Of a stretch of DNA of 64,000 bases, positions 13,212 through 64,000 are shown one piece after another (position 1 is the stretch's first letter; each line of letters starts with the position of its first letter). The notes beneath the pieces were generated by a model. It was given only the letters and a program-made list of their open reading frames with translations. It was not told the origin of the DNA and made no database searches. This DNA is from a virus. The DNA lies in the IMG/VR virus record IMGVR_UViG_3300007539_000013, positions 15,742-79,741 of that record; one strand, given 5' to 3'. Position numbers and translations under genes: made by a program.

Positions 13212-13412
13212 TTAGGAGTATGTCCCTCCGTCTATTTCGGTTTCAAGAGCCTCTACCCGAACCTCTACATTTTCAAGGGACACAGTCGTTGCTCTTAAAT
13301 TTATTAAATCCAGAAGCTCTTGATTGGTTTCTGTCGAGCTATCCAGAATGGTTGAAATTTCTGATTTTATAAAGCTTCCAACTTTAAATAGATCTGTATC
13401 TTCTGTTGCCAT
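13212..13412 (-). CDS. Small tail-associated protein
   Basis: Probable ATG at 13412 (TAATG overlap); LFKVGSFIK motif, coiled coil, ends DGGTYS. Confidence 0.6.
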   Translation of the reverse strand: MATEDTDLFKVGSFIKSEISTILDSSTETNQELLDLINLRATTVSLENVEVRVEALETEIDGGTYS

Positions 13413-16400
13413 TATGGAGCTTCCGTTGGAGTTCCAGTGGTCGCAAATTCCCACTGTGTCCCTCTGTTAGACAAGTTAAACCACGACCAGACCCCACTTG
13501 ATATATTAGTCGAGTGGGTTGTGTAAGGATAATCCCTTGGATTATCAGGGTCTTCTGCCCTAATTAGCGTTTGATCCTGACTTATTCCCGTCGTGCGGAA
13601 TACTGTTCCTGCAGGATGTTCAATTGCTGTTCCCGTTCTCGTATTAGTATAGGGCACTAAAAAATAAATGTGATGCGCTCCGACCTCATCAACAAAATTA
13701 TTTAAATCAAAGTATGGGTCGGGTACATACGGAACTTCAGGTTGTACATCCGTACCATCCGTACCATCCGTACCATCCGTACCACCTCCATCCGGAATTG
13801 TATTACCATATCCATTTAGGAAATCTTGGTAACTTCCAGTTACACTATTAAGCCCAACAGAAAGATTTTCTGCTGTCTTAATAGCACGGCCGATTTTAAA
13901 AAGAATTGAATTCGTATCAGTTCCTGCGGGTGGTGCCGTATATGTGGTTAAAACTACTTTTGCAGGCTCAGTCCCGCCAGGTATGTCAACAACATCTCCA
14001 TCCTGATAACCAGTACCATCATCTGTAATAGTTGGGTCTTTTACCCCTCCGTCATCATTCACATCGTAGCTAACTTTAAGGCCTGTTCCTGAGCCGCCTG
14101 TTGTTGGAACATCTGTACCCGGAGAAGTATAGCCAGAGCCCGTGTCTATGACTGTTGGTGTGGTAAATGTACAAAAATTCAGTAAACTCGTTGGCGGAGT
14201 GAAGTTGCCTGTGTAGACCGCTTTTTTACTGATGCGGATGTCTTGTATGGCTCCACTGGAATAATTAGGAGTCACCCGATAACCGATTGTGTGGTCCTGA
14301 ATTTTGTTGAAATTCCATGTGTTGAGCGCGTCACTGGTTGCTACTTGCTGACCGTCGTACCAGATGCTACAACCAGTTGATGTTCTGGTGAATGCCACAT
14401 GATGGAACTGCCCATCAAATTTAAATACTCCTAAACCGGTCTCCACCCGATTAGCAGTGTTATTACCATGCATGCTGAAGCCGATCACTCCAAGTGTATT
14501 AGCACCGAAGAACCAATCATCTAGCTGAGCAACATTACCATGAGGCAGATTTTGCAGTATGGTGAAATAATCTGATCCATCGCTTTTAATCCAAGCTTCT
14601 ATGGTGAAGTCACTGGTACCAAACGCCAGTGTGTCGCTACTTGATACTGTCAAATAATCTCCGTTACCATCAAAATTGATTGTTCCACCACCAAACAGTG
14701 TGGCAGTGTTGTCCACAACTGTATCACCAACTACAGTGATCTCATGATTGTTACCGCTTTTATCAGTGATCGTATCTCCAGAAGAAGGTTGAATATGTAA
14801 AACTACTTCTTCGCAAGTTGGCTCACTTGGAGGTGTCACAGCAACACTTAATGTGGTGGGTGGGGTAAAGTCTCCGGGGTAAACAGCCGTTTTGCTGATG
14901 CGAACATCTTGAATGTATCCATCATACTGAAGGGTGCCATTGGGCCATGAATGTCTTCCTACACGGAGTGCGTGGTATGAATTTGCAGTAGAATGAGAGC
15001 CCCCAACAGATTCTCCCACTAATACACCATTAACAAATAATTTGTACGTATTGAAATTGCGGCATACTGCAATATGATACCATGTGTTGAAATTTACTGT
15101 TCCTCCAGTAATGTTGACAACTGGACTCCCTTGGGCCCCGCTTGTTATCCTAAAAGTGAAGCCATCAGTACCTGCCCATAAACCAATTCCCAACGAAGTC
15201 GTGCTTCCACCTGTCGCTATAATGCTCGACCTTAAATCACTCCCCCCCCAATTACTTGAGTCCCCCCAGTCTGATAGATTTGCCCAGCACTCTACTGTGT
15301 AATCAGTGGTGCCATCATGCAGGAATTTGAATGTACTTTCATCTCCTATCTGTAAATAATCACCTGTGCCATCAAAAGCCATACTCGTAGAACCCAAGTA
15401 AGCTTCGGTAGTACTATGCTGTGTGTCCCCGAGAACTGATACTGAACGACTATTGTAACTTAAGTCAGTAAATGTAGTATTACCGTCAGTGGTGTTACTT
15501 TGAATAAGCAGTTCTATATCTTCACGACTTGGTTGTACGGGCTCACAACTCAATGAGTAAACATAAACTGAACCTGAGTCGGTGCCAGCGTCATCACCAA
15601 ATAATGAACCAACTGCTAGGTGGTCACCATCAAGACTCACACCGACACCGAAATAGTCATTAGTCACAGTGTCTGTGGCGCGAAACTTGTGTGTTTGTGT
15701 CCAGGTGCCATTCAGTAGTTCGAATATGTACACCGAACCACTATTAGCATCAGTGTCATCGTCAGCATGTGCACCAACTGCTAGTCGTGTACCAAGCAGA
15801 CTCACATCAATACCGAAATAGTCACCGGCCGCAGTGTCATTGCCCTGAAACTTATGGATTTGTACCCACGAGTTATTCTGCAACTCAAAGATGTACGCCG
15901 ACCCACTTTCGGAACTAGTTTCATGGTCAGGATGCGCACCAACTGCTAGTCGGTCACCATTCAGACTCACAGACCTACCAAAACGGTCACCAGCCACAGT
16001 GTCATTGCCCTGAAACTTGTGTGTCTGCGTCCACGTACCATTCAGCAGTTCGAATATGTAAACTGATCCACTATTAGTACCAGCGTCGTCGTCATCATGT
16101 GCACCAACCGCTAGTCGTGCACCTTCCAAGCTAACGCCGATACCAAAATAGTCATTAGCCGCAGTGTCTGTGGCACGAAACTTATGGGTTTGTACCCACA
16201 AATTATTCTGTAACTCAAAGATGTAAACTGACCCACTGTCGGTGCCAGCGTCGTCGTCAGCATGCGCACCAACTGCTAGTTGGTTGCCATCCAAACTAAC
16301 ACTGCGACCAAAACGATCATTAGCTACAGTGTCGTTACCCTGAAACTTATGGGTCTGTGTCCATGCACCATTTTGTAACTCGTAGATATATACACTGCCA

Positions 16401-18082
16401 CTGTCGGTGCCAGCGTCATCATCATAATGCGCACCAACTGCTAGTCGTGTGCCATCAATGCTGGCACTGATACCAAAACGATCACCATTAGAGCCATCTG
16501 ATGCTACAATTTTTTGTAATAACTGTGGGCAGATTTCGGTGGGTTGCTGTACAGTAACTTCAGATATTGTGGCGGTTACCGTACTAGATGCAGATCCATC
16601 ACCAATAACCGGGTAATATGTACCACTAGCTACTCCTGTTATTTGATAAGAAGTCCCACCATTAACTGAGTAATCAAGCGTGCCATTATCTGCGTCAAAT
16701 GTAAAAGTAACGGTATCTCCACTGCGTACTTGAGTAAGGGAGTTTTGGCTGGAAGAAGATTGGACATACTCTGTAACATAACTTAAGCCGCCTTGTGCAT
16801 ATATCCCGTAGGAATTACTAGATGCGCCAATGAATGTATTAGTGGCGGCTGGGTTCTGCTCACTTGTAATACCTAAAAATATACCCGAACCAATCGTATC
16901 TACTGTAAAATCAAATGAATATGTTCCACTTGAAATAGTTTTTGTACTAACTGCTCTGCGGAAAGTCGACGTACCAGTCTGAGCGGTTAAGTTATTATTA
17001 CTTAGCGTGACACCATTGTTGTATGACGTGGAGAATGCAATCTCGCCTGAGTTGTCAGTCGAAATACTAATATCCTCACCTTCAGATATTGTGGCAATTA
17101 CTGTTTTATCAGCGGCTCCACTACCAATGACTGGGTAATATGTACCAGCAGGAACTGCTTCACCCTGCATTTCAAATGCAGCGCCGCCATTTAATGAGTA
17201 ATGAATTTTTCCATTATCCGCATCAAAGGTAAAAGCAATAGTATCTCCTTCAACTACATTTACGTTGAAGTTTGCAGGTATATCCCCTAATGATCCAGTC
17301 CCTGGATTATACTCCTGAACATAACCATAGTTTGGTCGGGCATATATTCCGTGTGAGTTACTAGATGAACCAATAAATACATTGGAGCTATCTGGATTCT
17401 CCTCACTTGTGATGCCTAGAAATATACCAGCAGCAATTTTATCTATCGTGAACTCAAGGGAGAGTTTTCCACTTGAAGCAGATATTGAACTAACTGCTCT
17501 GCGGAAAGTCGTAGTACTTGTCTCAGCAGTTGTATTATTATTACTTAGTGTAACACCAGAGTTGTATGTTGTGGAGAATTGAGGGCCTACTGCAATAACA
17601 TCTACAGTACGAGTAACCTCAGTAGCCACATTTCCAGCGGCATCTGTGTAATTGTAAGCAATAGTATATGTACCAACCGTAGAAGTATCTACTGATCCTG
17701 TTACTACTGCGTCACCCGAACCATCTACATTGTCTGTCCATGTAGCACCTTGCTCGGTGTAAGTATCTCCTTGCGTTAGAGTTATACTAGCATCACCTGT
17801 TAGAGTGATTACTGGTTTTTCTGTATCTGATACATAAAGCTCATAATATGTGCCTAGGTCTGCTGGGTCTAAATACCTAGTTTGACCATTATAGGTAACC
17901 TCGTAATTGTATGAAGTGTAAAAGTAATTAATTCGTACAAGCTCTGCGGTTTCTCCCTCAGGAAAAAATATTGGGTAACTGTAGCTCCAACCACCACCAC
18001 CACTAGTCGCTACTGCACCATAAATCTTTGCGTAGTCGTATAGGGAAACAAATGTGTCACCAGGATTAAAAGATGTACTCAT
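13412..18082 (-). CDS. Giant multidomain adhesin/tail protein (DUF5011 Ig-like, 2x SPRY-like, FG-GAP repeats, 2x LamG)
   Basis: KPVITLTGD...GATWTDNVDG; two TLSNNN...FTFDADNG...YYPVIG units; six FGxSVSLDGxRLAVGA...SGSVYIFE repeats; two FDGxGDYL...TVECW...WYHIAV...IQDVRISK units. Confidence 0.85.
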   Translation of the reverse strand: MSTSFNPGDTFVSLYDYAKIYGAVATSGGGGWSYSYPIFFPEGETAELVRINYFYTSYNYEVTYNGQTRYLDPADLGTYYELYVSDTEKPVITLTGDASITLTQGDTYTEQGATWTDNVDGSGDAVVTGSVDTSTVGTYTIAYNYTDAAGNVATEVTRTVDVIAVGPQFSTTYNSGVTLSNNNTTAETSTTTFRRAVSSISASSGKLSLEFTIDKIAAGIFLGITSEENPDSSNVFIGSSSNSHGIYARPNYGYVQEYNPGTGSLGDIPANFNVNVVEGDTIAFTFDADNGKIHYSLNGGAAFEMQGEAVPAGTYYPVIGSGAADKTVIATISEGEDISISTDNSGEIAFSTSYNNGVTLSNNNLTAQTGTSTFRRAVSTKTISSGTYSFDFTVDTIGSGIFLGITSEQNPAATNTFIGASSNSYGIYAQGGLSYVTEYVQSSSSQNSLTQVRSGDTVTFTFDADNGTLDYSVNGGTSYQITGVASGTYYPVIGDGSASSTVTATISEVTVQQPTEICPQLLQKIVASDGSNGDRFGISASIDGTRLAVGAHYDDDAGTDSGSVYIYELQNGAWTQTHKFQGNDTVANDRFGRSVSLDGNQLAVGAHADDDAGTDSGSVYIFELQNNLWVQTHKFRATDTAANDYFGIGVSLEGARLAVGAHDDDDAGTNSGSVYIFELLNGTWTQTHKFQGNDTVAGDRFGRSVSLNGDRLAVGAHPDHETSSESGSAYIFELQNNSWVQIHKFQGNDTAAGDYFGIDVSLLGTRLAVGAHADDDTDANSGSVYIFELLNGTWTQTHKFRATDTVTNDYFGVGVSLDGDHLAVGSLFGDDAGTDSGSVYVYSLSCEPVQPSREDIELLIQSNTTDGNTTFTDLSYNSRSVSVLGDTQHSTTEAYLGSTSMAFDGTGDYLQIGDESTFKFLHDGTTDYTVECWANLSDWGDSSNWGGSDLRSSIIATGGSTTSLGIGLWAGTDGFTFRITSGAQGSPVVNITGGTVNFNTWYHIAVCRNFNTYKLFVNGVLVGESVGGSHSTANSYHALRVGRHSWPNGTLQYDGYIQDVRISKTAVYPGDFTPPTTLSVAVTPPSEPTCEEVVLHIQPSSGDTITDKSGNNHEITVVGDTVVDNTATLFGGGTINFDGNGDYLTVSSSDTLAFGTSDFTIEAWIKSDGSDYFTILQNLPHGNVAQLDDWFFGANTLGVIGFSMHGNNTANRVETGLGVFKFDGQFHHVAFTRTSTGCSIWYDGQQVATSDALNTWNFNKIQDHTIGYRVTPNYSSGAIQDIRISKKAVYTGNFTPPTSLLNFCTFTTPTVIDTGSGYTSPGTDVPTTGGSGTGLKVSYDVNDDGGVKDPTITDDGTGYQDGDVVDIPGGTEPAKVVLTTYTAPPAGTDTNSILFKIGRAIKTAENLSVGLNSVTGSYQDFLNGYGNTIPDGGGTDGTDGTDGTDVQPEVPYVPDPYFDLNNFVDEVGAHHIYFLVPYTNTRTGTAIEHPAGTVFRTTGISQDQTLIRAEDPDNPRDYPYTTHSTNISSGVWSWFNLSNRGTQWEFATTGTPTEAP
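13747..13782. repeat. Perfect 9-bp tandem repeat x4 (CATCCGTAC), encodes (GTD)4
   Basis: Directly visible and in frame. Confidence 0.95.
15555..16520. repeat. Six ~165-bp FG-GAP coding repeats
   Basis: 55-aa period; recurring GCACCAACTGCTAGT and GAAACTT blocks. Confidence 0.9.
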
Positions 18083-37665: not shown

Positions 37666-38670
37666 CTATTGGATACTAAAGTATTGATCGGCCATTTCCT
37701 TATCTACCCTGTTGTTTTTATAGTTCTTAAGAAAAGTCTCGGAAGACATATGGCCCATGGTATCTAATGCCCACTCAAATGATTTCCAGTAGCCATAACT
37801 ACCAAATGAGTGCCTGGCACCATTAGCTGGGTAATTAAACCCTACCCTACGGGACGCCCACCTTCGCGCCAAGTTAAGTGCGTTGTAGGACGGCATAACT
37901 AAACCTTTAGACTTTGGTACCCAAGACCACAAATTCTCGGGTGGCTTGATCCATCGCTCCCTCCCCGTCTTAGTATGCTCAGCCTTTAGTCCTATAGATT
38001 TGCCCCATCGGATGTCTGAATATTTCAAGGTTGCCATTTCCACCTCGGGTCTAATTCCCGTGAATAACATAATCGCTAGTCCAGGTTTATACTTTTCGTC
38101 TATTTCATCTAAAAGTGCCTTAGCTTCATCAACCTGTAAAATACCGGGCAACTTAAAAAAAACTTTTTTTGTGTTCATTTTTAGGTCTGGATTAGTTTGC
38201 ATATACCAATCTGATGCATTTTGCCCGTAACCCTTTTTCGCACACCATGCCATGAAGATACGAACAGCCCGTCCATATTCTTTTTTAGTTTTCTCCGACC
38301 AGTCCCCTGAGTTCACATACTTCTTGTACGACTCCACGGTTACATCTGATACTAACCTACCTCCACCAAACCATGTTAGGAATTTATTAACCCGCTCCTC
38401 TGTTGTGCGATAGCCTTTTTGTTTTGGTTTGGCTGGATTATAATTATTCTCAAAGTACTCCGTCAAATACTCGCTGCTTGCTACATTGAGTAATGTCTGA
38501 TCTCCAACAGGTTCTTTTTTAGCGACCTCACCTAGCCAACTAACCACATCAAACGCTTTGGCTTCCATGGCTGAATTAAAATACTTTCTTCTTCGCTTCC
38601 CGTCCCTATGAACTGAAAGTATCCACTTTTGTTTTCCTCTAACCTCTCCTTTATAAATATTGATGTTCAT
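37666..38670 (-). CDS. int: Tyrosine recombinase / integrase
   Basis: TGIRP (R), KTGRER (K), ARHSF (R), MGH, NY (Y); N-terminal arm-binding-like GKRRRKYF; next to a tRNA fragment. Confidence 0.93.
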   Translation of the reverse strand: MNINIYKGEVRGKQKWILSVHRDGKRRRKYFNSAMEAKAFDVVSWLGEVAKKEPVGDQTLLNVASSEYLTEYFENNYNPAKPKQKGYRTTEERVNKFLTWFGGGRLVSDVTVESYKKYVNSGDWSEKTKKEYGRAVRIFMAWCAKKGYGQNASDWYMQTNPDLKMNTKKVFFKLPGILQVDEAKALLDEIDEKYKPGLAIMLFTGIRPEVEMATLKYSDIRWGKSIGLKAEHTKTGRERWIKPPENLWSWVPKSKGLVMPSYNALNLARRWASRRVGFNYPANGARHSFGSYGYWKSFEWALDTMGHMSSETFLKNYKNNRVDKEMADQYFSIQ

Positions 38671-38671
38671 G

Positions 38672-38691
38672 TGTCGCCACTTTTGTCGCCA
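38672..38691. other. Putative integrase arm-type sites (left pair)
   Basis: TGTCGCCA at 38672 and 38684. Confidence 0.65.
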
Positions 38692-38798
38692 GTAAATGTG
38701 TAAATTCGTGGTTATTTATGAAACTTAGTGAAGTAAACAAAAAAACACCCCCCATTACTGAGAGGTGCTTATATAGTGAGATTGTGGCTTATTTAAAG

Positions 38799-38848
38799 TG
38801 GCACACCCGGCAGGAGTCGAACCTGCAACCTCCTGATCCGTAGTCAGG
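38799..38848 (-). other. attP core: 3' half of tRNA-Arg(ACG), not a complete tRNA
   Basis: CCTGA-CTACGGA-TCAGG anticodon arm, GCAGG-TTCGACT-CCTGC T arm, CGGGTGT-G-CCA end. No D arm or 5' acceptor strand upstream. Confidence 0.88.
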
Positions 38849-38859
38849 GCATGATCCTC

Positions 38860-39177
38860 TTATTTACTGGGACTTGGGCTGGTGTTGCCAATTTGTTGCC
38901 AGATTAACTGTATGGATTCCATTATTTCTTCGTCATGGAAATAAACCCATGTAGCCATGCCGACATTACAGATCAGGGAGATCACCAAAATTACGCCAAG
39001 GCATAAGACCAATGTCTTAATACTTTGAGCAATCCCTTCCACCTTTAATGCAAGGTCGTGAACATCATTTAACCGAGTGCCATCCACTCTTATTTCGCCA
39101 ATCTCACCATCCAGATCAGTAGACCACTCTTGGGTGTCGTGAAGAATTGTTATGTTCTGGGTGGAGGGGTTGTCCAT
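38860..39177 (-). CDS. Single-pass membrane protein (possible lysogen-expressed gene)
   Basis: LVLCLGVILVISLICNVGMATWVYF hydrophobic helix; between repressor-like gene and attP. Confidence 0.55.
   Translation of the reverse strand: MDNPSTQNITILHDTQEWSTDLDGEIGEIRVDGTRLNDVHDLALKVEGIAQSIKTLVLCLGVILVISLICNVGMATWVYFHDEEIMESIQLIWQQIGNTSPSPSK
38883..38901. other. Putative integrase arm-type sites (right pair)
   Basis: TGTTGCCA at 38883 and 38894. Confidence 0.6.
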
Positions 39178-52291: not shown

Positions 52292-52360
52292 GCCCTAGCA
52301 ATAGGGCAAGGCAAACCAAGGCAAATTCGATTGAGTTTGCCTTGGTTTGCTTTGCTTTAC
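52292..52360 (+). terminator. GCAA-tetraloop hairpin plus 23-bp hairpin, terminator-like
   Basis: 52306-52328 pairs with 52333-52355; the only two non-canonical pairs are G-U on the plus strand. Confidence 0.7.
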
Positions 52361-53938: not shown

Positions 53939-53977
53939 AGGGGCATCGGTTTTCGTGACCGATGCCCTTTTCTTTTT
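53939..53977 (+). terminator. Intrinsic terminator
   Basis: GGGCATCGGT-loop-ACCGATGCCC followed by TTTTCTTTTT. Confidence 0.9.
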
Positions 53978-55654: not shown

Positions 55655-56511
55655 GTGAGCTATACTACGCATGGAATCGTAAGGGTCAGCCAATCGCAAA
55701 GGTAGGTGATGACTTTCTGCGTCCGATCGCAGAAAAACTATCACTCGTCAATGACTACATCTTTGGTGACAAGTCATACTTTGTGGATGCACCAAGTGTT
55801 CCTACTGACTTCTGCAATGTGGTTGAGTGTGTTGAGCCTAAGCCGATCTGGATGCCTCGTATGGAGTCCTGCCCCATCCTTCCAATTGATGAGATCATGA
55901 GCATGCTCAGGTATCCCGTTGGTTCAGTTAATTCACCGCTTAATCCACAAACATATGTGGAGGGCAAGCTCGATGAAATGAGGTGCTACATGGTTGTATG
56001 GAATGATCGGGTCAGGAGTACATTCACTGATAAACGAGGTGGGTATATCGGTTATGACCTCGGTCTATTCACATCAGACAAGTACCCCAACCTGAAAGGT
56101 AAAGCAGTTATTCATGACATCGTTGCCAAGTGGGCATATTGCCACCGCAAGGCATGGCTGGAGCAGGACAACTTTCTGCCTTGGCTACACCTTGAGTCTA
56201 AGAATGGAGGCTTGACGCCATATGATGAGGTGTTCGTCAACAAGAGGGTGAAACTACCCTCTAAGACCGGAGGAGCCGAATGGGATGATTACCATAATAA
56301 TGTATATAAGGCAGTTGCTCGAGCAACCGCATGGGATCATGACGAGGACTGGCATCGCTGTGCGTACCCACCGTGTGAATTCAAGTGGTACGAGGGTATT
56401 GTAATGAAGCATAAGTTTCACCACTACAGAGTTCACTACATTAAACCACATGAGGTAGGTAAAGCACAGACCATAAATGTGGGTGAGTGGGAGAAGCTGA
56501 GGTGGGATTAA
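55651..56511 (+). CDS. ATP-dependent ligase-like nucleotidyltransferase domain, divergent
   Basis: EGKLDEMR (motif I), VIHDI (IIIa), YEGIVMK (IV), WEKLR (V); ends without an OB domain. Confidence 0.65.
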   Translation: MSELYYAWNRKGQPIAKVGDDFLRPIAEKLSLVNDYIFGDKSYFVDAPSVPTDFCNVVECVEPKPIWMPRMESCPILPIDEIMSMLRYPVGSVNSPLNPQTYVEGKLDEMRCYMVVWNDRVRSTFTDKRGGYIGYDLGLFTSDKYPNLKGKAVIHDIVAKWAYCHRKAWLEQDNFLPWLHLESKNGGLTPYDEVFVNKRVKLPSKTGGAEWDDYHNNVYKAVARATAWDHDEDWHRCAYPPCEFKWYEGIVMKHKFHHYRVHYIKPHEVGKAQTINVGEWEKLRWD

Positions 56512-56523
56512 TTGTGTTACAAA

Positions 56524-56547
56524 TGTAACACGAAATAATAAGTAACG
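56524..56547 (+). promoter_or_regulatory. 24-bp bipartite motif copy
   Basis: TGTAACACGAAATAATAAGTAACG followed by AAAGGAGG and ATG 56560; an extra TGTTACA at 56515. Confidence 0.75.
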
Positions 56548-56559
56548 AAAGGAGGCACT

Positions 56560-56928
56560 ATGCCTGATAATATGGATCCCTATTCGGTGGGGGATATAAA
56601 TACACACATCGATCACATGGTTAAGGACGCTATGCGTCCCGTTGAACCACCAGTACTAAACCCTATTGATCGTTTAGATCTACCTGCATTCATCCGCAAG
56701 GATGAACGGGTAAACATAGCTCAGATCAATGGGGTACTGAACCTGGCACAAAGCCGTAATGAACTGCCCACATTTATTGAGGTGCAGAATATTAACGGGT
56801 CTCATGTCATCCGTGTCGAGTTTGGCACAGATGTACGAATCGTAACCAAAAGTCCAACGGGATACCACATAGAACACCCGGTAGACTTCGAACTAATAGG
56901 AAGGAAAATCAATGACAATAGAATATGA
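56560..56928 (+). CDS. Hypothetical protein
   Basis: Strong SD. Confidence 0.65.
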   Translation: MPDNMDPYSVGDINTHIDHMVKDAMRPVEPPVLNPIDRLDLPAFIRKDERVNIAQINGVLNLAQSRNELPTFIEVQNINGSHVIRVEFGTDVRIVTKSPTGYHIEHPVDFELIGRKINDNRI

Positions 56929-57493
56929 AGACCCAAACAAGGGTAACATCTACACGCTCAATGACCATGGGTCAGGCAATATGACCTGCACTGTAAATAT
57001 GAGCAATCGTAAGGTTGTGCCTTGGCCAACCGAGTATGCCAACCTTGGTAAGCAACTGGAAGAGTTCGTTCCGCATCTTCAATGTATGGCTCTAGCTGAA
57101 GAAATATTCAGGGGTGAGGAAGCCAAGGAGATTGCTCGTACTTATGAGAAGTTGGCTAGTTACTGGACGGAGATGCCTGATGCACCAACGGATGATCCAA
57201 ATGCTGATAAAGTATGGCTCAAGTTCTTTAATACAACTGGGGCAGGCTATTGGTATATGATGACAAAACCCAATAGGGCAACCGGAGATCATGCCTATGG
57301 GTATTGTGTGATCTTTGAAGACTGTGGTGAGTATGGCTCATTTGTCTTCAATGACCCACGCTACCCCAAGGATGACATCATGCAAGTATGCCCGATGCTT
57401 AATGTGGATACATGGTTTGAGCCTGTGTTGTACACAGATTTCAAGGCGCAGTTACTCATGGATAAGATCCCAGAGGACAATGAACTGGGCTAA
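56912..57493 (+). CDS. DUF2958-like protein
   Basis: LKFF..G..YWYM...AYG...GEYGSF...VDTWFEP. Confidence 0.6.
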   Translation: MTIEYEDPNKGNIYTLNDHGSGNMTCTVNMSNRKVVPWPTEYANLGKQLEEFVPHLQCMALAEEIFRGEEAKEIARTYEKLASYWTEMPDAPTDDPNADKVWLKFFNTTGAGYWYMMTKPNRATGDHAYGYCVIFEDCGEYGSFVFNDPRYPKDDIMQVCPMLNVDTWFEPVLYTDFKAQLLMDKIPEDNELG

Positions 57494-58187
57494 ATGGAGG
57501 CTTGAGTCACCAGATAAAATCATAGGAAGTAAGGCGCAAGCCACATATCGGGGAGTAGCACAACAGCTCTCCGAAATGAAAGACCTCGTAGGCACAGAGT
57601 CTACGGGGTCTTTTGCTTTCAGTGGTGATCCTGGTGTGGGTAAAACATCTATTGCCATGATGCTTGCCAATGGTTGGGTGGATGATCCGTTCAATCTAAG
57701 GCACGGCCCTGAGTTCTCGGGGCGCAGTATCAAGGAGGCAACCCTGTCTACCTTAATTGACGAGTGTAGGTATGCACCACTCATAGGTAAATGCCGTGCC
57801 CTTGTCATCAATGAGGTGGACAAGATGCAACGCCACTTACAGGAGATGCTACTCGATTGGATCGAGGACTATCTGCCTGATCACTTTGTGGTCTTCGTGA
57901 CTACGAACAAGAACCTAGAGGCAAAGGTGGTGGTGGACAAGCTAAGTAAGTCAGAGCGAGAGGAGTACCTTGAGCCTAGATTTGCTGAGCGGTTCATGCC
58001 CTACCACATAACCAACCCTACCAATGAGGAGATGGCTAGTTCCATTGAATCGTTGACGGGTGTACCGACCCAAATTGCGCAACATGCCGCGCGCAATGCA
58101 CAAGGTTCGGTGCGGTCTGCACTGAAGCAGGTCGCAAAATGGAAAGCGGCAGTAAACTCAAAGAAGGAGGCTAAGTTATGCCAATAA
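57480..58187 (+). CDS. AAA+ ATPase of the clamp-loader clade
   Basis: KWR..SPDKIIG, GDPGVGKTS, VINEVDKM, VTTN, RFAERF, GSVRSAL; likely ATG at 57480. Confidence 0.85.
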   Translation: MNWAKWRLESPDKIIGSKAQATYRGVAQQLSEMKDLVGTESTGSFAFSGDPGVGKTSIAMMLANGWVDDPFNLRHGPEFSGRSIKEATLSTLIDECRYAPLIGKCRALVINEVDKMQRHLQEMLLDWIEDYLPDHFVVFVTTNKNLEAKVVVDKLSKSEREEYLEPRFAERFMPYHITNPTNEEMASSIESLTGVPTQIAQHAARNAQGSVRSALKQVAKWKAAVNSKKEAKLCQ

Positions 58188-58864
58188 ATACTAAACAGGA
58201 GTTCATGGAATGGTACTCCAAAAATGTTAAACCAGATACATCAAAGAAGAATGCCTTCAAGGGTATGGTCACCACCGTATCCCCTGAATCAGCAGCAAAC
58301 TTTGCTACATTCTTCACTAATGATAAAATTGTGCCGGACATCAAAGGTGAGACGAAGGATGAAACGAGGTTCCGTCTCATCAATGAGTGGAAGGATAAGC
58401 TCGATCTCATGGATCACTCAGCACCTGTGGCTACCGAGGAAGTTCGTGGTGACATTACTGACATCGCTGACATGCCTGAGACGGAGGTAGTGGACGACAT
58501 ACCAGTCAAACCTAAGGTTGTGGATGTGGAGCTATCCGCTGAGCGTGAAGCCGAGGACATTGCATCTGCTGTGGAGAACAGGCAAGAGCAAGCGTCTGAT
58601 CCAGCAGACTACCTTGGGCCTCATGCTCAATCAGAGCCTCAACTATCACCACCGCCCGCCACCACATCTGATGTGCTTACTCAGCTGGGAACTGCATTGA
58701 GTGCCTTCATTGCTTCAACGGACTCCCCGCCAGAGGACACGGCAGATGGAGCTAGTAAGGATGCAATCCTTAAGCTTGGTAAGATCGTTGCAGAACAAGG
58801 CAAGACCATTGAGAAGCTCGAAAAGAAAGTGAAGAGCTTATTCAACGCATTGAGGGATGAGTAA
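58178..58864 (+). CDS. Hypothetical protein with acidic linker and C-terminal coiled coil
   Basis: AAGGAGG SD; TAATG-coupled to PRTRC protein E. Confidence 0.65.
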   Translation: MPINTKQEFMEWYSKNVKPDTSKKNAFKGMVTTVSPESAANFATFFTNDKIVPDIKGETKDETRFRLINEWKDKLDLMDHSAPVATEEVRGDITDIADMPETEVVDDIPVKPKVVDVELSAEREAEDIASAVENRQEQASDPADYLGPHAQSEPQLSPPPATTSDVLTQLGTALSAFIASTDSPPEDTADGASKDAILKLGKIVAEQGKTIEKLEKKVKSLFNALRDE

Positions 58865-59367
58865 TGAGCGTCACTAAACAGATTGGTGAACTCTGTGGTG
58901 CAGGGTTCACTGTAAATGTGGTGTACTCACCATCTCAGGAGGAGGGTAAGATCAATGCTACCTTTCTCCTGTCTGGTGACAAGCACCTGGAAAGCGAACA
59001 CGATGAGGTTGTAAAGCTTCTCAAGAAGCCTATACAGATTCCACCATCAACCCCAGAGGAGCTTGAGCAAGTTGTGCTTGCTGAGCTAGAGCCTGTGGTT
59101 GAGGAGCGTGTGCCTATCTCAAACTCAATCAAGGAGGAGTACGATAAGATACAGGCAACCAAAAAGAAGACACCTGCCAAAAGGACTCCTGCTAAGAAGA
59201 CTACTGCGGTCAAGAAGAAGACAAAGGCACAGGAGGCAAAGGAGCAAGCCCGTGCGAAAGCAGAGCAAGCAACTGCCGACCTGCCCTTGTTTCAGTCTGA
59301 TCGTAGTGCCAAGGCAAAGGAGAAAGACCCAACACCTACTGAGGAGGAGGAGGTAATCGAGCTATGA
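58864..59367 (+). CDS. PRTRC system protein E
   Basis: KPIQIPPSTPEELE (PLxLxGTPxELD-like), K/A-rich tail with LPLF; cassette context. Confidence 0.7.
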   Translation: MSVTKQIGELCGAGFTVNVVYSPSQEEGKINATFLLSGDKHLESEHDEVVKLLKKPIQIPPSTPEELEQVVLAELEPVVEERVPISNSIKEEYDKIQATKKKTPAKRTPAKKTTAVKKKTKAQEAKEQARAKAEQATADLPLFQSDRSAKAKEKDPTPTEEEEVIEL

Positions 59368-59564
59368 GTAAGGTACTTCCAAGAGTGTTCGTACTATCTG
59401 GTAAGGAGCCACTACCTGACCCAGCACCTTCATTATCCGTGGAGGAGGTCAGAGGCTTGCTTGCTAAAACCTATCCGGAACTAACCAATGCGAAATTCAC
59501 AGAAAAAATTGAAGATGAAAAAATCGTCATCAGGTTTGAAGCGAGTTACGGTACCAAAGGCTAA
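59364..59564 (+). CDS. PRTRC system protein C (prokaryotic ubiquitin-like)
   Basis: RVF...LPDPAPSLSVEEVR...YPELTNA...GTKG-stop. Confidence 0.92.
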   Translation: MSKVLPRVFVLSGKEPLPDPAPSLSVEEVRGLLAKTYPELTNAKFTEKIEDEKIVIRFEASYGTKG

Positions 59565-59573
59565 GGAGCTACT

Positions 59574-60467
59574 ATGGTTGAAATATTGCTCGGCCCTGAA
59601 ACACAGGCTCGAAAATGTCAAAGGAGGGAGGCTTCCTTCTCATTTGCTACCTCCTCGGCTCTAGCCCCACCAGCGACATGTCCAACAATTATATTGAATG
59701 GACTTTCGTACATGGCTGTAGCCAAGGAAACGGAGGCTGATGAAGAGCTATCCACTCTGTTCTCAGAATCTGGCTTCAATCTGATTGCTGGCATTATGGA
59801 CGGGGGTTGCTACATAGACTCTCACAGTAAGTTCACCTCTTATGCTATTGGTGCAAGGGTGGATCTACTGGAGCGTAGATGCGGTGCAGGTTGGTACTTG
59901 CTTCAACTACTAGATGACTGCCCCATACCTATATGGGATCCAAGATTCTTGTATGACCATGCCAAGCACATGTTTAACCTTGATTTCCATAAGTGTACAT
60001 CAGAGTGGCTATGGGAAAAACCAACCCAAGATTGGGACAGGAAGTTCCCCGCCTGCAAGAGTAGACTACCCAAAAAGCTACGCAAGCTATGTACTGATGT
60101 GGAGGAAGCTAGTGCAGACCCAAGGATGCACGAGCTATGGCTAGGTGCCAACTCGGAGTACCCGGACAATGAATGTGCCCAAATCCCTGCGATCGTGCTG
60201 TCGTGGTGGGATAATGTTCATTGGTATAATGGTCAGTGCAGAAAGAACCCATCGTTCACAATAGAGCATGGGACTAACCCTGTGTTCGCAATAATGGACT
60301 CATATGCAGAAAGCACACTGCAGACAGGAGCAACTCACATGGGATCACCAATCTACCATGACCTTGATGATGTAAGGACAATCGTAGAGCTGGCGAAACC
60401 ATACGCAAAATTAATTGATTACTTATCGCACGATGAAGAAGAATGTGGATTCAACTGTATCTTTTGA
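59574..60467 (+). CDS. Probable PRTRC system protein F
   Basis: Position between C and B; LERRCGAGWYLLQLL...IWDP segment. Confidence 0.5.
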   Translation: MVEILLGPETQARKCQRREASFSFATSSALAPPATCPTIILNGLSYMAVAKETEADEELSTLFSESGFNLIAGIMDGGCYIDSHSKFTSYAIGARVDLLERRCGAGWYLLQLLDDCPIPIWDPRFLYDHAKHMFNLDFHKCTSEWLWEKPTQDWDRKFPACKSRLPKKLRKLCTDVEEASADPRMHELWLGANSEYPDNECAQIPAIVLSWWDNVHWYNGQCRKNPSFTIEHGTNPVFAIMDSYAESTLQTGATHMGSPIYHDLDDVRTIVELAKPYAKLIDYLSHDEEECGFNCIF

Positions 60468-61017
60468 GGGCAGTGTAACAAGTGCTTTGATGTTCTTTAA
60501 GGTAGGCAGTCAAGATGTCGCCTTGATGATGAAGTGGTGTGATGAGCAAGGGTGGCACTCACCTAAGCCTATCGACCATGATGAGATGGTGGCTATTGCT
60601 AACTCAACATCAAAGAACACTGAGTTCCTTCCCGACCGCATGCTGACATACAACAGCGAGATAAATTTCTCCTGGTGGGTGCCCGCAAAGCGAAGGAAGA
60701 TCAATGTAAAGAAATCAACGCGTAAAGAATTCTACTATCCAGCCATGGTCTTTCATGTGCTGTGCGGAATGCTTTATGTTGGTTGTCTTAAAAACAATAG
60801 AAGACCAACCCCTGAAACCGAGACATACAGTATATTCGGCAAAATGGATGTTCACCAAACAAGAGCAGCCTTCTGTCAAACTCGTAAACCTGAAGGAGTG
60901 GGGGTAAGCACGATCCCTCAATGGGAGGATGCCTTCTATAAATCAACCTATAACAAGCTACCTAACCTAAAGGAGTGGAAGCCAAATGGAACTGTGGGGT
61001 CGATATGCACAAAGTAA
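60433..61017 (+). CDS. PRTRC system protein B (prokaryotic E2 family D)
   Basis: WWVPAKRR, YPAMVF, RPTPET, FC, WEDAFYKS. Confidence 0.85.
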   Translation: MKKNVDSTVSFEGSVTSALMFFKVGSQDVALMMKWCDEQGWHSPKPIDHDEMVAIANSTSKNTEFLPDRMLTYNSEINFSWWVPAKRRKINVKKSTRKEFYYPAMVFHVLCGMLYVGCLKNNRRPTPETETYSIFGKMDVHQTRAAFCQTRKPEGVGVSTIPQWEDAFYKSTYNKLPNLKEWKPNGTVGSICTK

Positions 61018-61694
61018 ATAGATTCCCTAGCTCTGTTCATATCTCAGTCATAGGCTGTGGAGGTACGGGTTCCCATGTGGTCAATCAGTTGGTCGATGTG
61101 CATACTGCTATCACAACACTTGGTCATCCTGGTCTAACAGTCCAGGCATACGATGGCGATGCTGTCGCTTTTAGTAATGTTGGTAGGCAAGCATTCTACC
61201 AACAGGATGTAGGTAGGCCAAAGGCTCAAGTGCTAATTGAAAGGATCAATATGTACTACGGGTTGAATTGGCGCGCCCACAACCACCTAGCTAACGGTGT
61301 TGGAGTTAGTGCTGATATTCTTATATCATGCGTTGACACCAAAGCGTCAAGACGCCTCATCAAAGGAGCCCCTAAGACCAAAAAGACATACATCATTGAG
61401 TGTGGTAATGCCCGAGCTTCGGGGCAGGTAATACTAGGTCAGGAAAAGGGTGACCTACCAAACCCATATCGTGAACACCCTGGTCTCACGAAGGGTAAGG
61501 AACCGAAGGGCGAGGGATGCCTCGACCCATATTATAAACAAGACTTGGCGGTCAACAGGGTGGTCGCTACATACGTACAACAAATCGTTTGGGACTTATT
61601 GCGTAAGCATGAGATCGGATACCGAGGGGTATTCTTCGATCTCACAAAGTTTACAAGCAATGGTATCCAAGTAAATAGAAAGGAGGGTGCATGA
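61005..61694 (+). CDS. PRTRC ThiF-family E1-like enzyme
   Basis: VIGCGGTGS, DGD.V..SNVGRQ.F...DVG..KA, SCVD...R, ECGN...GQVILG, EGC...QDLAVN; alternative GTG start at 60975. Confidence 0.93.
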   Translation: MHKVNRFPSSVHISVIGCGGTGSHVVNQLVDVHTAITTLGHPGLTVQAYDGDAVAFSNVGRQAFYQQDVGRPKAQVLIERINMYYGLNWRAHNHLANGVGVSADILISCVDTKASRRLIKGAPKTKKTYIIECGNARASGQVILGQEKGDLPNPYREHPGLTKGKEPKGEGCLDPYYKQDLAVNRVVATYVQQIVWDLLRKHEIGYRGVFFDLTKFTSNGIQVNRKEGA

Positions 61695-64000
61695 TCAATA
61701 TACATGACATGTACATAAAGAACGACGGATCCATCGGTATTGATACCGAGTTCGCACCATTTGATGACACAGGTCATCGAGGATGGAAGGAGCTGAAGGA
61801 TCTAATCAAGGAGCATGACCTTAGCGTTAAAGTGCCAAGAGGCTCAGTTATTGAGTGTCTTGAGTCTATTGCGGGTAAGACTCCACTAGAGCTAACCATA
61901 ACAATGGAGGACAGGGACAAGCTAGTTGCTTTGTACTCACATCCTAAAGTAACAAAGGATCAAGAATGTGCGGAGGTTATCCTCAAGGCGTTGCAAGACT
62001 CCGAGAAGATTGCTCCCCCTATCCTACCGCCAACCGACTACTCGCTCATTGCTTATGTGGATGAGTTTGGGTCACTAAAGTGTAAGGAGACCAAGAGGTA
62101 TGCCCTATCCAGCGGAGGCACTGTTCGTCCTTTTGTTATTGCAGAGGGTAAAGAGTACTCAGTTGAGTTACGTGCCAATGGTTACTCGGATGCGTTCACT
62201 AGACCAAAGGTTCATTATAGTTCACTAAAGAAAGAAATGACCAAGGTGATGCACGACATCACGCTTGAGGGTACAGATACTAACCTAGTACTCAATATAA
62301 CAACCGACTGGAAGCCTGACACTAAATTCATTGATGGTGAGTTAGTTCGTCACGACTACTCGTGGTACAGGTGCAAGTCAGAGCATCAGTCTGGAGAGCA
62401 GTTCGATGGTGATAAGTTTGAGCGTACTTGGAACAACTCAGTTGAGATTATCTTCCGGCAGTATGTTAATGTCGACAAACCAAGGGGCGCTCCTGAGGTT
62501 GATGAGAACTTACTATGGGAGATATTTGAGAAGCCCGCAGTAAATAACATTACGCAGAAGTATCCAGAAAAGTATCAAGGTAACCTTGAGACCTTGGAGT
62601 TCATGCAAGAGTTCACCGATGATGTTAGGTGGTACCCTGTTCAGCGTGAGTTCATTGCTTCTATGGCTTGTGCAGATACAGGACTTATTGCAGCGGAGAC
62701 GGGAGCAGGTAAGTCGGGTATGGCTATTGGTCTTATTAACTGTAAGGCACCTGGTCGTACATTGCTTATTGCTCCCAAGGGCACCGTTGACGATGGCGGG
62801 TCACTTGACCTCGCTCAATGGCAACGAGAGTTCAATAAGTTCTCGCCCGATACTCCTGTGTACACAATGTCATCAGAGGAGGACTTCCGTCAGCTGGCAG
62901 ATGCAAACGGAGGTGAACTGCCCTTTGGTGTATTCATCTCATGGGACTATGTGATGTTCAAGAAGGATGCCCTAGAGGTTGAACCCGATGCGTGGACAAA
63001 AAGCACAATGGAAGCTAAGATGCGTAAGCGTTGCGGACTGCCGAAGTGGGAAATCGGGGATCAGTATTACTCTCAGAACATTGGTCAAATATCTGACGGC
63101 AAAGTAATCACCGAGTTCAAACCTGAGATCACCCATGACGAGGATGGTAATGTAAAGGTAAAGAAACAAGGTAACCTTGTGCGCCCGAAGGGTGGCTTCA
63201 AGTGTATCGCTATGCCATGCCTCGCAACCAAGCTAGGTAACATATGGGATATGATCGTTATAGACGAGGCGCATCTCATCAAGAACCCTAACTCGCAGAT
63301 CACGCAGGCAGTAACCATGATGCAGGCACCTTATCGGTTCTGCCTTACTGCTACTCCGATCCATAATTATGCCTACGACATATTCACCCTAGCTGGTTGG
63401 TTATGTGTAGACGATTGGTGGAGAGGCAATAGATCAAACCCTCGCTGGCCATACACGAGACAACAAATGGGTAAGTTCAGGGATCGCTTCCTATCTAAGG
63501 AGGTTGACCATACACAGCGTGAGATCAACAGGACTAGCAAGAATCAAATCAGTACGACTAAGGAGTCGCCTATACTGTCTGAGCCCCAATCCTTACTCAA
63601 GCAGACTGGTACTTTCCTTGGTTTTGTAACCAAGAGGCAGTGCAATCCAGATATGGTTAAGTGTATCATTCATGATGTACGAGTGGAGATGTCGCTTGAG
63701 CAACATACGATGTACAAGCATTGGCTGAACTTCGACAATATTGATGCCGCAGGCACGCAAATGGTCATGAAGCAGATGCAGTACTTGCGAGGTGTATGCT
63801 CATCACCTGACGAGGGTAAGCACGCTACCGAGTACGAGGCAACCGGTATGCTCATGCCTAGTCCATTCAATCACAAAATTATCGCTGTTATTGAGACTAC
63901 AATATCGTGCCTGTCCAGAGGGGAGCAAGTTACAATCGTGTACTACTCGAAAGGTCAAGGTCGAGTCCTTAGCGAACTGCTATCATCAGCAAGCATTAAG
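61691..64000 (+). CDS. SNF2-family helicase, 3' end outside window
   Basis: Absent from the ORF track (runs off the edge). AAGGAGG SD and ATGA overlap with the E1 gene; motif I LIAAETGAGKS, motif II VIDEAHLIKN, motif III LTATPIHN. Confidence 0.9.
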   Translation, partial: MINIHDMYIKNDGSIGIDTEFAPFDDTGHRGWKELKDLIKEHDLSVKVPRGSVIECLESIAGKTPLELTITMEDRDKLVALYSHPKVTKDQECAEVILKALQDSEKIAPPILPPTDYSLIAYVDEFGSLKCKETKRYALSSGGTVRPFVIAEGKEYSVELRANGYSDAFTRPKVHYSSLKKEMTKVMHDITLEGTDTNLVLNITTDWKPDTKFIDGELVRHDYSWYRCKSEHQSGEQFDGDKFERTWNNSVEIIFRQYVNVDKPRGAPEVDENLLWEIFEKPAVNNITQKYPEKYQGNLETLEFMQEFTDDVRWYPVQREFIASMACADTGLIAAETGAGKSGMAIGLINCKAPGRTLLIAPKGTVDDGGSLDLAQWQREFNKFSPDTPVYTMSSEEDFRQLADANGGELPFGVFISWDYVMFKKDALEVEPDAWTKSTMEAKMRKRCGLPKWEIGDQYYSQNIGQISDGKVITEFKPEITHDEDGNVKVKKQGNLVRPKGGFKCIAMPCLATKLGNIWDMIVIDEAHLIKNPNSQITQAVTMMQAPYRFCLTATPIHNYAYDIFTLAGWLCVDDWWRGNRSNPRWPYTRQQMGKFRDRFLSKEVDHTQREINRTSKNQISTTKESPILSEPQSLLKQTGTFLGFVTKRQCNPDMVKCIIHDVRVEMSLEQHTMYKHWLNFDNIDAAGTQMVMKQMQYLRGVCSSPDEGKHATEYEATGMLMPSPFNHKIIAVIETTISCLSRGEQVTIVYYSKGQGRVLSELLSSASIK

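Follow-up and report, generated by a model that had tools for sequence, protein, structure and literature searches.

Does a tailed phage encode a ubiquitin-like conjugation pathway of its own, and what might such a pathway do for the virus? This question is raised by five adjacent genes at 58864-61694 in the stretch of DNA analyzed here (the window), which is 64,000 nucleotides long and corresponds to bases 15742-79741 of the 79,741-bp IMG/VR virus record IMGVR_UViG_3300007539_000013. An earlier note, made from the sequence alone, had read these genes as a PRTRC (ParB-Related, ThiF-Related Cassette; TIGR03734-03742). Such cassettes were described as operon type 6d by Iyer, Burroughs and Aravind in 2006, who predicted that they carry out genuine ubiquitin-like conjugation in bacteria (PMC1779556). 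We consider it reasonably probable that the locus encodes a working, protease-less branch of PRTRC type 6d, which activates and transfers a ubiquitin-like protein (Ubl) and is used by the phage in replication or establishment. The five open reading frames (ORFs), which the note had described as tightly coupled, were all recovered as follows.

58864-59367, plus strand: PRTRC_E-like protein, 167 aa (ORF position, hhalign, ESM Atlas)
59364-59564, plus strand: Ubl, PRTRC protein C/Prok_Ub, 66 aa (Pfam PF14454, TIGR03738)
59574-60467, plus strand: PRTRC_F-like protein, 297 aa (hhalign, gene order)
60415-61017, plus strand: E2-like protein, PRTRC protein B/Prok-E2_D, 200-aa ORF (PF14460, TIGR03737)
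60975-61694, plus strand: ThiF-type E1, PRTRC ThiF, 239 aa (TIGR03736)

Ubiquitin-like protein and its predicted enzymes

The E1 matched the PRTRC_ThiF hidden Markov model (HMM) TIGR03736 with 193.7 bits, which is above the curated cut-off of 144.75. It carries the motifs GCGGTG (residues 27 to 32), SNVGRQ and EGC, and residues G27-G32, D60, N68, R71, K83, D121 and C182 were invariant in the alignment of its clade. These residues align with E. coli ThiF (1ZUD), the closest solved relative. By alignment, the protein combines the nucleotide-binding Gly loop with the catalytic Arg, Lys and Asp of a ThiF-type E1. An alternative ATG start is present at 61005.

The Ubl matched Pfam Prok_Ub (PF14454) with an E-value of 2.4e-14 and 53.3 bits (cut-off, 25). 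Its match to TIGR03738 covered the full length but remained, at 41.6 bits, under the curated cut-off of 45.95. The protein ends in YGTKG directly before the stop codon, and the terminal Gly is therefore the encoded end. Among 68 homologues, G63, K65 and G66 were at least 90% conserved. An AlphaFold2 (AF2) model of the Ubl, with a predicted local distance difference test (pLDDT) value of 84.6, displayed a bb-a-bb topology followed by a flexible tail. Its structural neighbours were nearly all beta-grasp proteins, including the Raf Ras-binding domain (RBD), ubiquitin variants, ISG15, FAT10, MoaD, SUMO and TtuB. The Z values were about 5, no more than a protein of 66 residues would be expected to give. 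A Foldseek search of the PDB with the same model gave no significant E-value, and its list was rich in Ubl domains. The model thus points to the beta-grasp fold that the earlier note had anticipated for 59364-59564.

A predicted complex of E1 and Ubl reached an interface score (ipSAE) of 0.62, compared to 0.00 for the best control; among solved complexes, 58 of 80 attained this mark, as did 2 of 110 mismatched pairs. The contacts agreed by at least 94% over three runs, and the pLDDT of the partners was at least 85. In the model, residues 60 to 66 of the Ubl contact E1 residues 27 and 29-32 (Gly loop), 119-123 (the region of D121) and 143-151, such that the Ubl tail would thread into the adenylation pocket. 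Since structures of the ThiF-ThiS and MoeB-MoaD complexes have been solved, this result may reflect likeness to them and not represent independent evidence. Taken together, the adenylation step is well supported by the predicted catalytic residues and by the modelled fold and docking.

For the E2-like protein, Prok-E2_D (PF14460) was matched with an E-value of 2.9e-15 and 56.9 bits (cut-off, 25), and TIGR03737 with an E-value of 1.4e-16 and 60.6 bits, below the curated cut-off of 131.45. Its true start is likely the ATG at 60433, which would yield 194 aa, the length of the close homologues. In the numbering of the 200-aa ORF, Cys154 (AAFCQ) is the candidate catalytic residue, and a Cys was present in 98% of 154 homologues. 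A word-index homologue search with the E2 yielded 5 close relatives only, and phmmer against PDB sequences returned only chance antibody matches.

The short signatures on which the earlier assignment was based (GTKG-stop, AAFCQ, the Gly loop, SNxxRQ in the form SNVGRQ, and EGC) were thus all present. The HMM comparison that it had proposed gave a mixed outcome: the E1 exceeded its TIGRFAM cut-off and the Pfam models recognized Ubl and E2, whereas TIGR03738 and TIGR03737 were matched below cut-off and no model matched E or F. Because B and C score below the TIGRFAM cut-offs, automatic annotation would name ThiF alone.

Missing peptidase and the C-terminus of the ubiquitin-like protein

Although the window contains ThiF, Prok_Ub and Prok-E2_D proteins of PRTRC type, it does not contain the full cassette that had been assumed. 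A search of the entire 79.7-kb genome with TIGR03735 and PF14464 revealed no JAB/MPN peptidase (protein A) at E ≤ 10; as a control, PF14464 was matched in 11 of 14 genomes. The overlap of the B and ThiF genes leaves no space for a further gene between them. A ParB domain (PF02195) was likewise not found at E ≤ 1 genome-wide, with the model matching in 11 of 14 control genomes, and a ParB HMM built from pMOL28 of Cupriavidus metallidurans detected nothing at the locus.

We compared the presence of JAB with the C-terminus of the Ubl in a census of 163 loci, including 80 viral loci (of 315 IMG/VR contigs with a PRTRC E1 match) and 80 genome loci (of 408 matches), which were collected by means of an E1 alignment and the parts of which were scored with purpose-built HMMs. 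In all 62 JAB-less loci, the Ubl stopped at the conserved terminal residue, which was Gly in all but one (GTKA). JAB-containing loci, 77 out of 87, encoded a C-terminal tail of 1 to 97 aa. On the ThiF tree, the JAB-less loci belonged to three or more separate clades, which argues against one inherited accident as the cause of the association. As absence of JAB goes along with a finished Ubl C-terminus, the simplest reading would be that, throughout the PRTRC family, maturation is carried out by JAB and the reactive end is formed by the terminal Gly. A trimming protease would not be needed in the window because its Ubl is translated in finished form. This near-perfect link between JAB absence and a finished C-terminus applies beyond the window.

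The length of the Ubl tail varied among JAB-containing cassettes. In phages of the type of Ralstonia phage Dina, the Ubl ORFs run on for about 57 to 97 residues past ...GTKG, typically for about 60 to 70 (L003:4010-4399, L004:3779-4168, and approximately 50 other JAB-containing viral loci). Tails of just 1 to 5 residues were observed in some other JAB-containing cassettes, namely, pMOL28 and a few viral loci. The long extension may represent a second domain that is released by JAB.

Accessory proteins, gene context and related phages

TIGRFAM, Pfam and PHROG models did not match the E-like and F-like proteins, the TIGRFAM and Pfam searches being negative even at E ≤ 10, and BLASTP revealed no similarity to E and F from pMOL28 and Dina. 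No PHROG model matched the Ubl or the E2 either. Profile-profile comparison was more sensitive in both cases. Using hhalign, the E-like protein aligned with canonical E over 82 N-terminal columns (85.6% probability; E-value, 5.6e-6), and its nearest ESM Atlas clusters were PRTRC_E (PF19556), with a score of 0.85 and 181 to 187 shared features. The F family aligned with a profile of 57 canonical PRTRC_F proteins over 245 columns (93.2% probability; E-value, 3e-7), while TIGR03742 found nothing in the F-like protein at E ≤ 10. An NCBIfam scan of all 15 F-family members identified no family and no TIGR03742 match, and ESM Atlas provided no lead for F. The gene order of both proteins is identical to that in pMOL28 (ParB-E-C-F-B-A-ThiF) and Dina (E-C-F-B-A-ThiF). 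We therefore accepted them as probable divergent PRTRC E and F proteins, of which F is the better supported.

In the E-like protein, the first 95 aa or so are predicted to form a globular domain; a tail rich in Lys, Ala and Pro comes next, and the C-terminus is acidic. Residues 93 to 167, approximately (59140-59367), contain the Lys/Ala/Pro-rich, histone-H1-like stretch KKKTPAKRTPAKKTTAVKKKTK, followed by the acidic end. DNA binding is one conceivable role of this tail; the provision of many acceptor lysines is another.

The F family is represented by only 15 sequences among 1.84 billion proteins. An AF2 model of the F-like protein (pLDDT, 81.4; predicted template modelling score, 0.79) was mostly alpha-helical, in agreement with the "novel alpha-helical protein" that was reported for type 6d operons (PMC1779556). 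Foldseek searches of the PDB and BFVD with this model returned no match at E ≤ 0.001, and the best Z value in a wide VIA-align comparison was 2.7. In one JAB-less locus, L088, which is located on contig JAVBRM010000236.1 of a Victivallaceae metagenome-assembled genome (MAG), the protein in F position matched both the canonical F profile and that of the window type. It is possibly a bridge between the two F families and provides a weak hint at a host.

Coupling of the five genes is apparent from their spacing. The E and C genes overlap as ATGA, the F gene starts 9 nt beyond the C stop codon with an AAGGAG site in front, and further overlaps exist at F/B, B/ThiF and ThiF/SNF2. Judged by this arrangement, the five genes are translationally coupled and lie inside a block with genes for a clamp-loader-like ATPase and an SNF2 helicase. 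The neighbouring genes, and the integrase locus discussed below, are as follows.

57315-58187, plus strand: clamp-loader-like AAA+ ATPase (phrog_5846 clamp loader, E-value 1.5e-14; Pfam AAA and DNA_pol3_delta2)
58178-58864, plus strand: 228-aa protein with no family match, the stop codon of which overlaps the E start
61691-64000, continuing across the contig ends, plus strand: SNF2-family helicase, 929 aa (PF00176, E-value 2e-19)
37666-38874, minus strand: tyrosine integrase (phrog_1) and tRNA-Arg(ACG), the tRNA at 38799-38874

The 228-aa protein fills the slot that is held by ParB in plasmid cassettes. It matched nothing in Pfam, NCBIfam, PHROGs or PADLOC, and homologues were seen only in the viral contigs L005 to L008. 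The plus-strand block around the cassette also codes for a DnaB-type helicase and a PD-(D/E)XK nuclease. The earlier note had placed the cassette in an early region; its position in a block of replication genes was borne out, whereas early expression is something we infer from that position. No strong plus-strand terminator was found from about 54000 to the end of the contig, and a promoter scan was uninformative, yielding fewer promoter-like sites than shuffled sequence. Two strong terminator-like hairpins are located on the plus strand just upstream of the gene block, at 52307-52354 (20 pairs) and 53939-53969 (13 pairs). Together, they probably mark the start of the transcription unit of the cassette.

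The E1 clade of the window comprises viral contigs L005/6 (67% identity), L009/10 and L011 (approximately 50%), and L012 (43%); among cellular sequences, that of the Victivallaceae MAG (L088) is closest to it. The survey of related phages that the note had called for revealed that L005/6, L009/10 and L011 all have the order AAA, E-C-F-B-ThiF, SNF2; in L012, SNF2 is still located downstream of ThiF. The five ORFs are intact in every relative. The ratios of nonsynonymous to synonymous substitution rates (dN/dS) between the window and L005 ranged from 0.11 to 0.28 for the five genes (0.11 for the E-like gene), similar to those of flanking replication genes, and are rough values since dS approaches saturation. 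These comparisons suggest that the cassette is under purifying selection in at least four related phage lineages.

Several observations address the integrity of the locus, for which a chimeric contig had been a concern. The 19 bases with which the full record begins recur at its other end, at window positions 63982-64000. Once the ends are joined and the 19-bp overlap is removed, the SNF2 ORF grows to 929 aa, matching the 928 aa of its L005 homologue. Because joining the ends completes this ORF to homologue size, the genome is closed circularly and the cassette region is not an assembly chimera. CheckV rated the 79,741-bp record complete. In addition, an independent marine-metagenome contig of 4,477 nt bridges 57834-62304 with about 2.5% divergence and contains no frame-breaking indels in the cassette. 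IMG/VR labels the record "linear."

Genes for a large terminase, portal, tail fibre, virion proteins and the integrase occupy the minus-strand half of the window, confirming, along with the HMM matches, that a tailed phage carries a PRTRC-type set of Ubl, E2 and E1. One of these genes (13412-18082, minus strand) codes for a 1,556-aa virion structural protein matching several PHROG families of that name. As the integrase gene adjoins tRNA-Arg, the phage appears temperate by gene content. The integrase/tRNA-Arg(ACG) site may be the attP region or a phage-carried tRNA. Metagenomes of 12 studies, of freshwater, aquatic and marine origin, contained near-identical sequence, and megablast of 56000-64000 against GenBank phages gave no match. 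The best cellular ThiF relatives, of which the Victivallaceae MAG is the nearest, are at most 40% identical, and no host can be deduced from them.

Proposed mechanism, alternatives and known systems

In the mechanism that we propose, the ThiF-type E1 would bind the 66-aa beta-grasp Ubl and adenylate its terminal Gly66. The activated Ubl would then be passed as a thioester to Cys182 of the E1, to Cys154 of the E2 or to both, and be moved onto the lysines of a target or several targets, with the E-like and F-like proteins as putative accessory factors or substrates. Without JAB, the cassette itself would not remove any conjugate. Since its genes are coupled to those of the clamp-loader-like ATPase and SNF2 and have been kept across deep divergence, the cassette would most likely serve replication or establishment of the phage genome, via modified phage or host proteins of DNA handling or defence, rather than the lysogen. 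The earlier suggestion that host or phage proteins may be tagged for counter-defence is plausible as a hypothesis. A bolder version is that irreversible, protease-less tagging with a remodelled E2 acts as a replication-phase weapon or regulator, directed at defence or DNA-handling proteins of the host or at the phage's own replisome partners (SNF2 and the clamp-loader-like ATPase); we offer this as a tentative idea that is doubtful at present.

A number of points weigh against the proposed mechanism. In the E2, Asp145 replaces an Asn that is near invariant (96% of 154 homologues) 8 to 9 residues upstream of the Cys, and Lys181 replaces a His that occurs in 87% of them. A His C-terminal to the E2 Cys was termed absolutely conserved in type 6d (Iyer et al. 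2006, PMC1779556). With Asn and His lost, the transfer chemistry may differ or shrink to thioester carriage, which weakens the case for the proposed thioester relay and lysine conjugation. Both replacements are common to the whole clade of the window and, for that reason, appear to be old and retained. Furthermore, neither B nor C reaches its curated TIGRFAM cut-off, the ties of E and F to PRTRC consist of profile-profile scores and position, and F is without a recognizable fold, although a missing fold match is no proof of a new one. Estimates of selection suffer from the saturation of dS mentioned above. A few 151-nt contigs from an aquatic metatranscriptome run (X20) were identical to ThiF and SNF2 (61189-61505 and 61899-62313) and to one upstream gene, with none over E, C, F and B; they may derive from carried-over DNA and, since transcription cannot be read from contigs, were not counted as evidence of expression. 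Finally, the searchable literature contains no report of a conjugate, thioester or target for any PRTRC system.

One alternative, which we regard as unlikely, is that the cassette is a prophage defence or superinfection exclusion system of the Bil/CBASS (a signaling system against phages that is based on cyclic oligonucleotides) Cap2 kind, by which a lysogen would benefit from the tagging of incoming phage proteins. The phage is temperate by its gene content, with the integrase adjoining tRNA-Arg, and according to PMC11601596, bacterial E1/E2/Ubl sets are proven antiphage systems. The N-terminal 75 to 80 residues of ThiF (the Rossmann region) weakly matched the PADLOC Cap2 "E1-E2" models, with E-values of 2e-6 to 1e-2. 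In contrast, Ubl, E2, E and F matched no PADLOC model, and no known defence or anti-defence family was recognized. The genes are coupled within a replication block, which is not a moron-like or lysogeny-module position, and they have kept the same place down to 43% ThiF identity, unlike the patchy turnover that is typical of defence cargo. Moreover, no CapW/BrxR- or CapH/CapP-type regulator was named alongside.

It is also improbable that the pathway is one of sulfur carriage or another adenylation pathway without conjugation. In that case, the E1 would adenylate the C-terminus of the Ubl in the manner of ThiF, MoeB and TtuC, and a Ubl thiocarboxylate would donate sulfur, e.g., for nucleotide, tRNA or DNA modification, without attachment to protein. 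Such a role would suit an E1 of minimal ThiF type with E. coli ThiF as its closest solved relative, a Ubl with MoaD and TtuB among its structural neighbours, the missing deconjugating peptidase and an E2 without the Asn and His that a transferase would be expected to possess. However, family searches of the cassette neighbours named no rhodanese, cysteine desulfurase, or ThiG-, MoaE- or TtuA-like partner. The cassettes invariably include an E2-fold protein, the Cys of which is 98% conserved, whereas we know of no sulfur-carrier pathway with such a protein. JAB-containing members of the family, in addition, resemble processing and deconjugation systems.

The PRTRC name and the plasmid context tie these cassettes to a ParB homologue, and the basic tail of E could bind DNA, as would be useful to a partition or segregation module for inheritance of an episomal prophage, such as the "ParB/ThiF partitioning cassette" (PMC13366799). 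We consider this very unlikely: no ParB domain is encoded genome-wide, an integrase is present, the conserved enzymes are those of Ubl chemistry and not of NTPase-driven segregation, and Dina-type phage cassettes also lack ParB. A decaying remnant without function, as the absence of two of the seven canonical components and the loss of Asn and His from the E2 might indicate, is hardly credible in view of five ORFs that are intact in all relatives, dN/dS values of 0.11 to 0.28, conserved catalytic Cys and E1 residues, a clade-wide and hence old and retained Asp-for-Asn exchange, and a finished Ubl end that fits the absent JAB.

The irreversible tagging in the replication phase that we suggest tentatively above would, if true, give prokaryotes their first example of ubiquitin-like conjugation on the side of the virus. 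The studied bacterial E1/E2/Ubl systems (Bil, CBASS Cap2 and Bub) belong to the host side, and a cassette in a phage replication operon points to virus-side use. PRTRC is common on plasmids, integrative and conjugative elements (ICEs) and hundreds of viral contigs. Five genes with no protease and a ready-made 66-aa Ubl form a compact set for reconstitution, and F offers a confidently modelled fold without a solved relative. It should be noted that phage-borne PRTRC was already known; the value of the present cassette is that of a well-characterized example and not of a discovery, as it is neither the first nor rare. Particular to it are a separate phage-only clade, a remodelled E2, a divergent F and fixation in the replication operon.

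The resemblance to known systems is graded. With pMOL28, the cassette shares the order E-C-F-B-...-ThiF and the Prok_Ub, Prok-E2_D and PRTRC_ThiF families, and with type 6d in general a Ubl ending in ...G-x-K-G, an E2 Cys, a late E1 Cys and a rapidly diverging helical F-like protein. Unlike canonical PRTRC, it lacks JAB, ParB, the Ubl extension and the E2 Asn and His, and the family HMMs do not recognize its divergent E-like and F-like proteins; unlike plasmid and ICE cassettes, it is carried in a phage replication operon. In bacteria, conjugation of this kind has been proven by experiment only for Bil (BilABCD), Bub and type II CBASS Cap2/Cap3 (PMC11601596). The cassette would share with Bil, Bub and CBASS Cap2 an E1 and E2 chemistry on a beta-grasp or target C-terminal Gly and differs in its minimal single-domain ThiF-type E1, the lack of a peptidase and its location in a phage replication module.

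The earlier note named plasmids and integrative elements as the main carriers of PRTRC, which understates its occurrence in phages. Records include Ralstonia phage Dina (NC_055026, annotated in RefSeq as E-C-F-B-A-ThiF), Burkholderia phage BgVeeders33 (OK665841) and the Burkholderia gladioli prophage AB2, in which it was called a partitioning cassette of unstudied function (2026; PMC13366799); a preprint on a Phocaeicola prophage also records PRTRC, and the 315 IMG/VR contigs add to these. Like the window phage, Dina, BgVeeders33 and AB2 are tailed temperate phages with E-C-F-B-ThiF and without ParB. They differ in that they keep JAB and a Ubl tail of about 62 aa after KG, are Burkholderiales phages of 33 to 39 kb, and possess ThiF proteins that are 33 to 35% identical to that of the window and belong to another ThiF clade. 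JAB-less E-C-F'-B-ThiF cassettes, common in Bacteroidota genomes and also seen on viral contigs, resemble the window in the absence of JAB and in a Ubl that ends at the terminal Gly. Unlike the cassette of the window, they belong to a ThiF clade of their own, with 53 tips, and keep both Asn and His in the E2, and their F-position protein shows no match to the F family of the window (hhalign probability, 0.4%).

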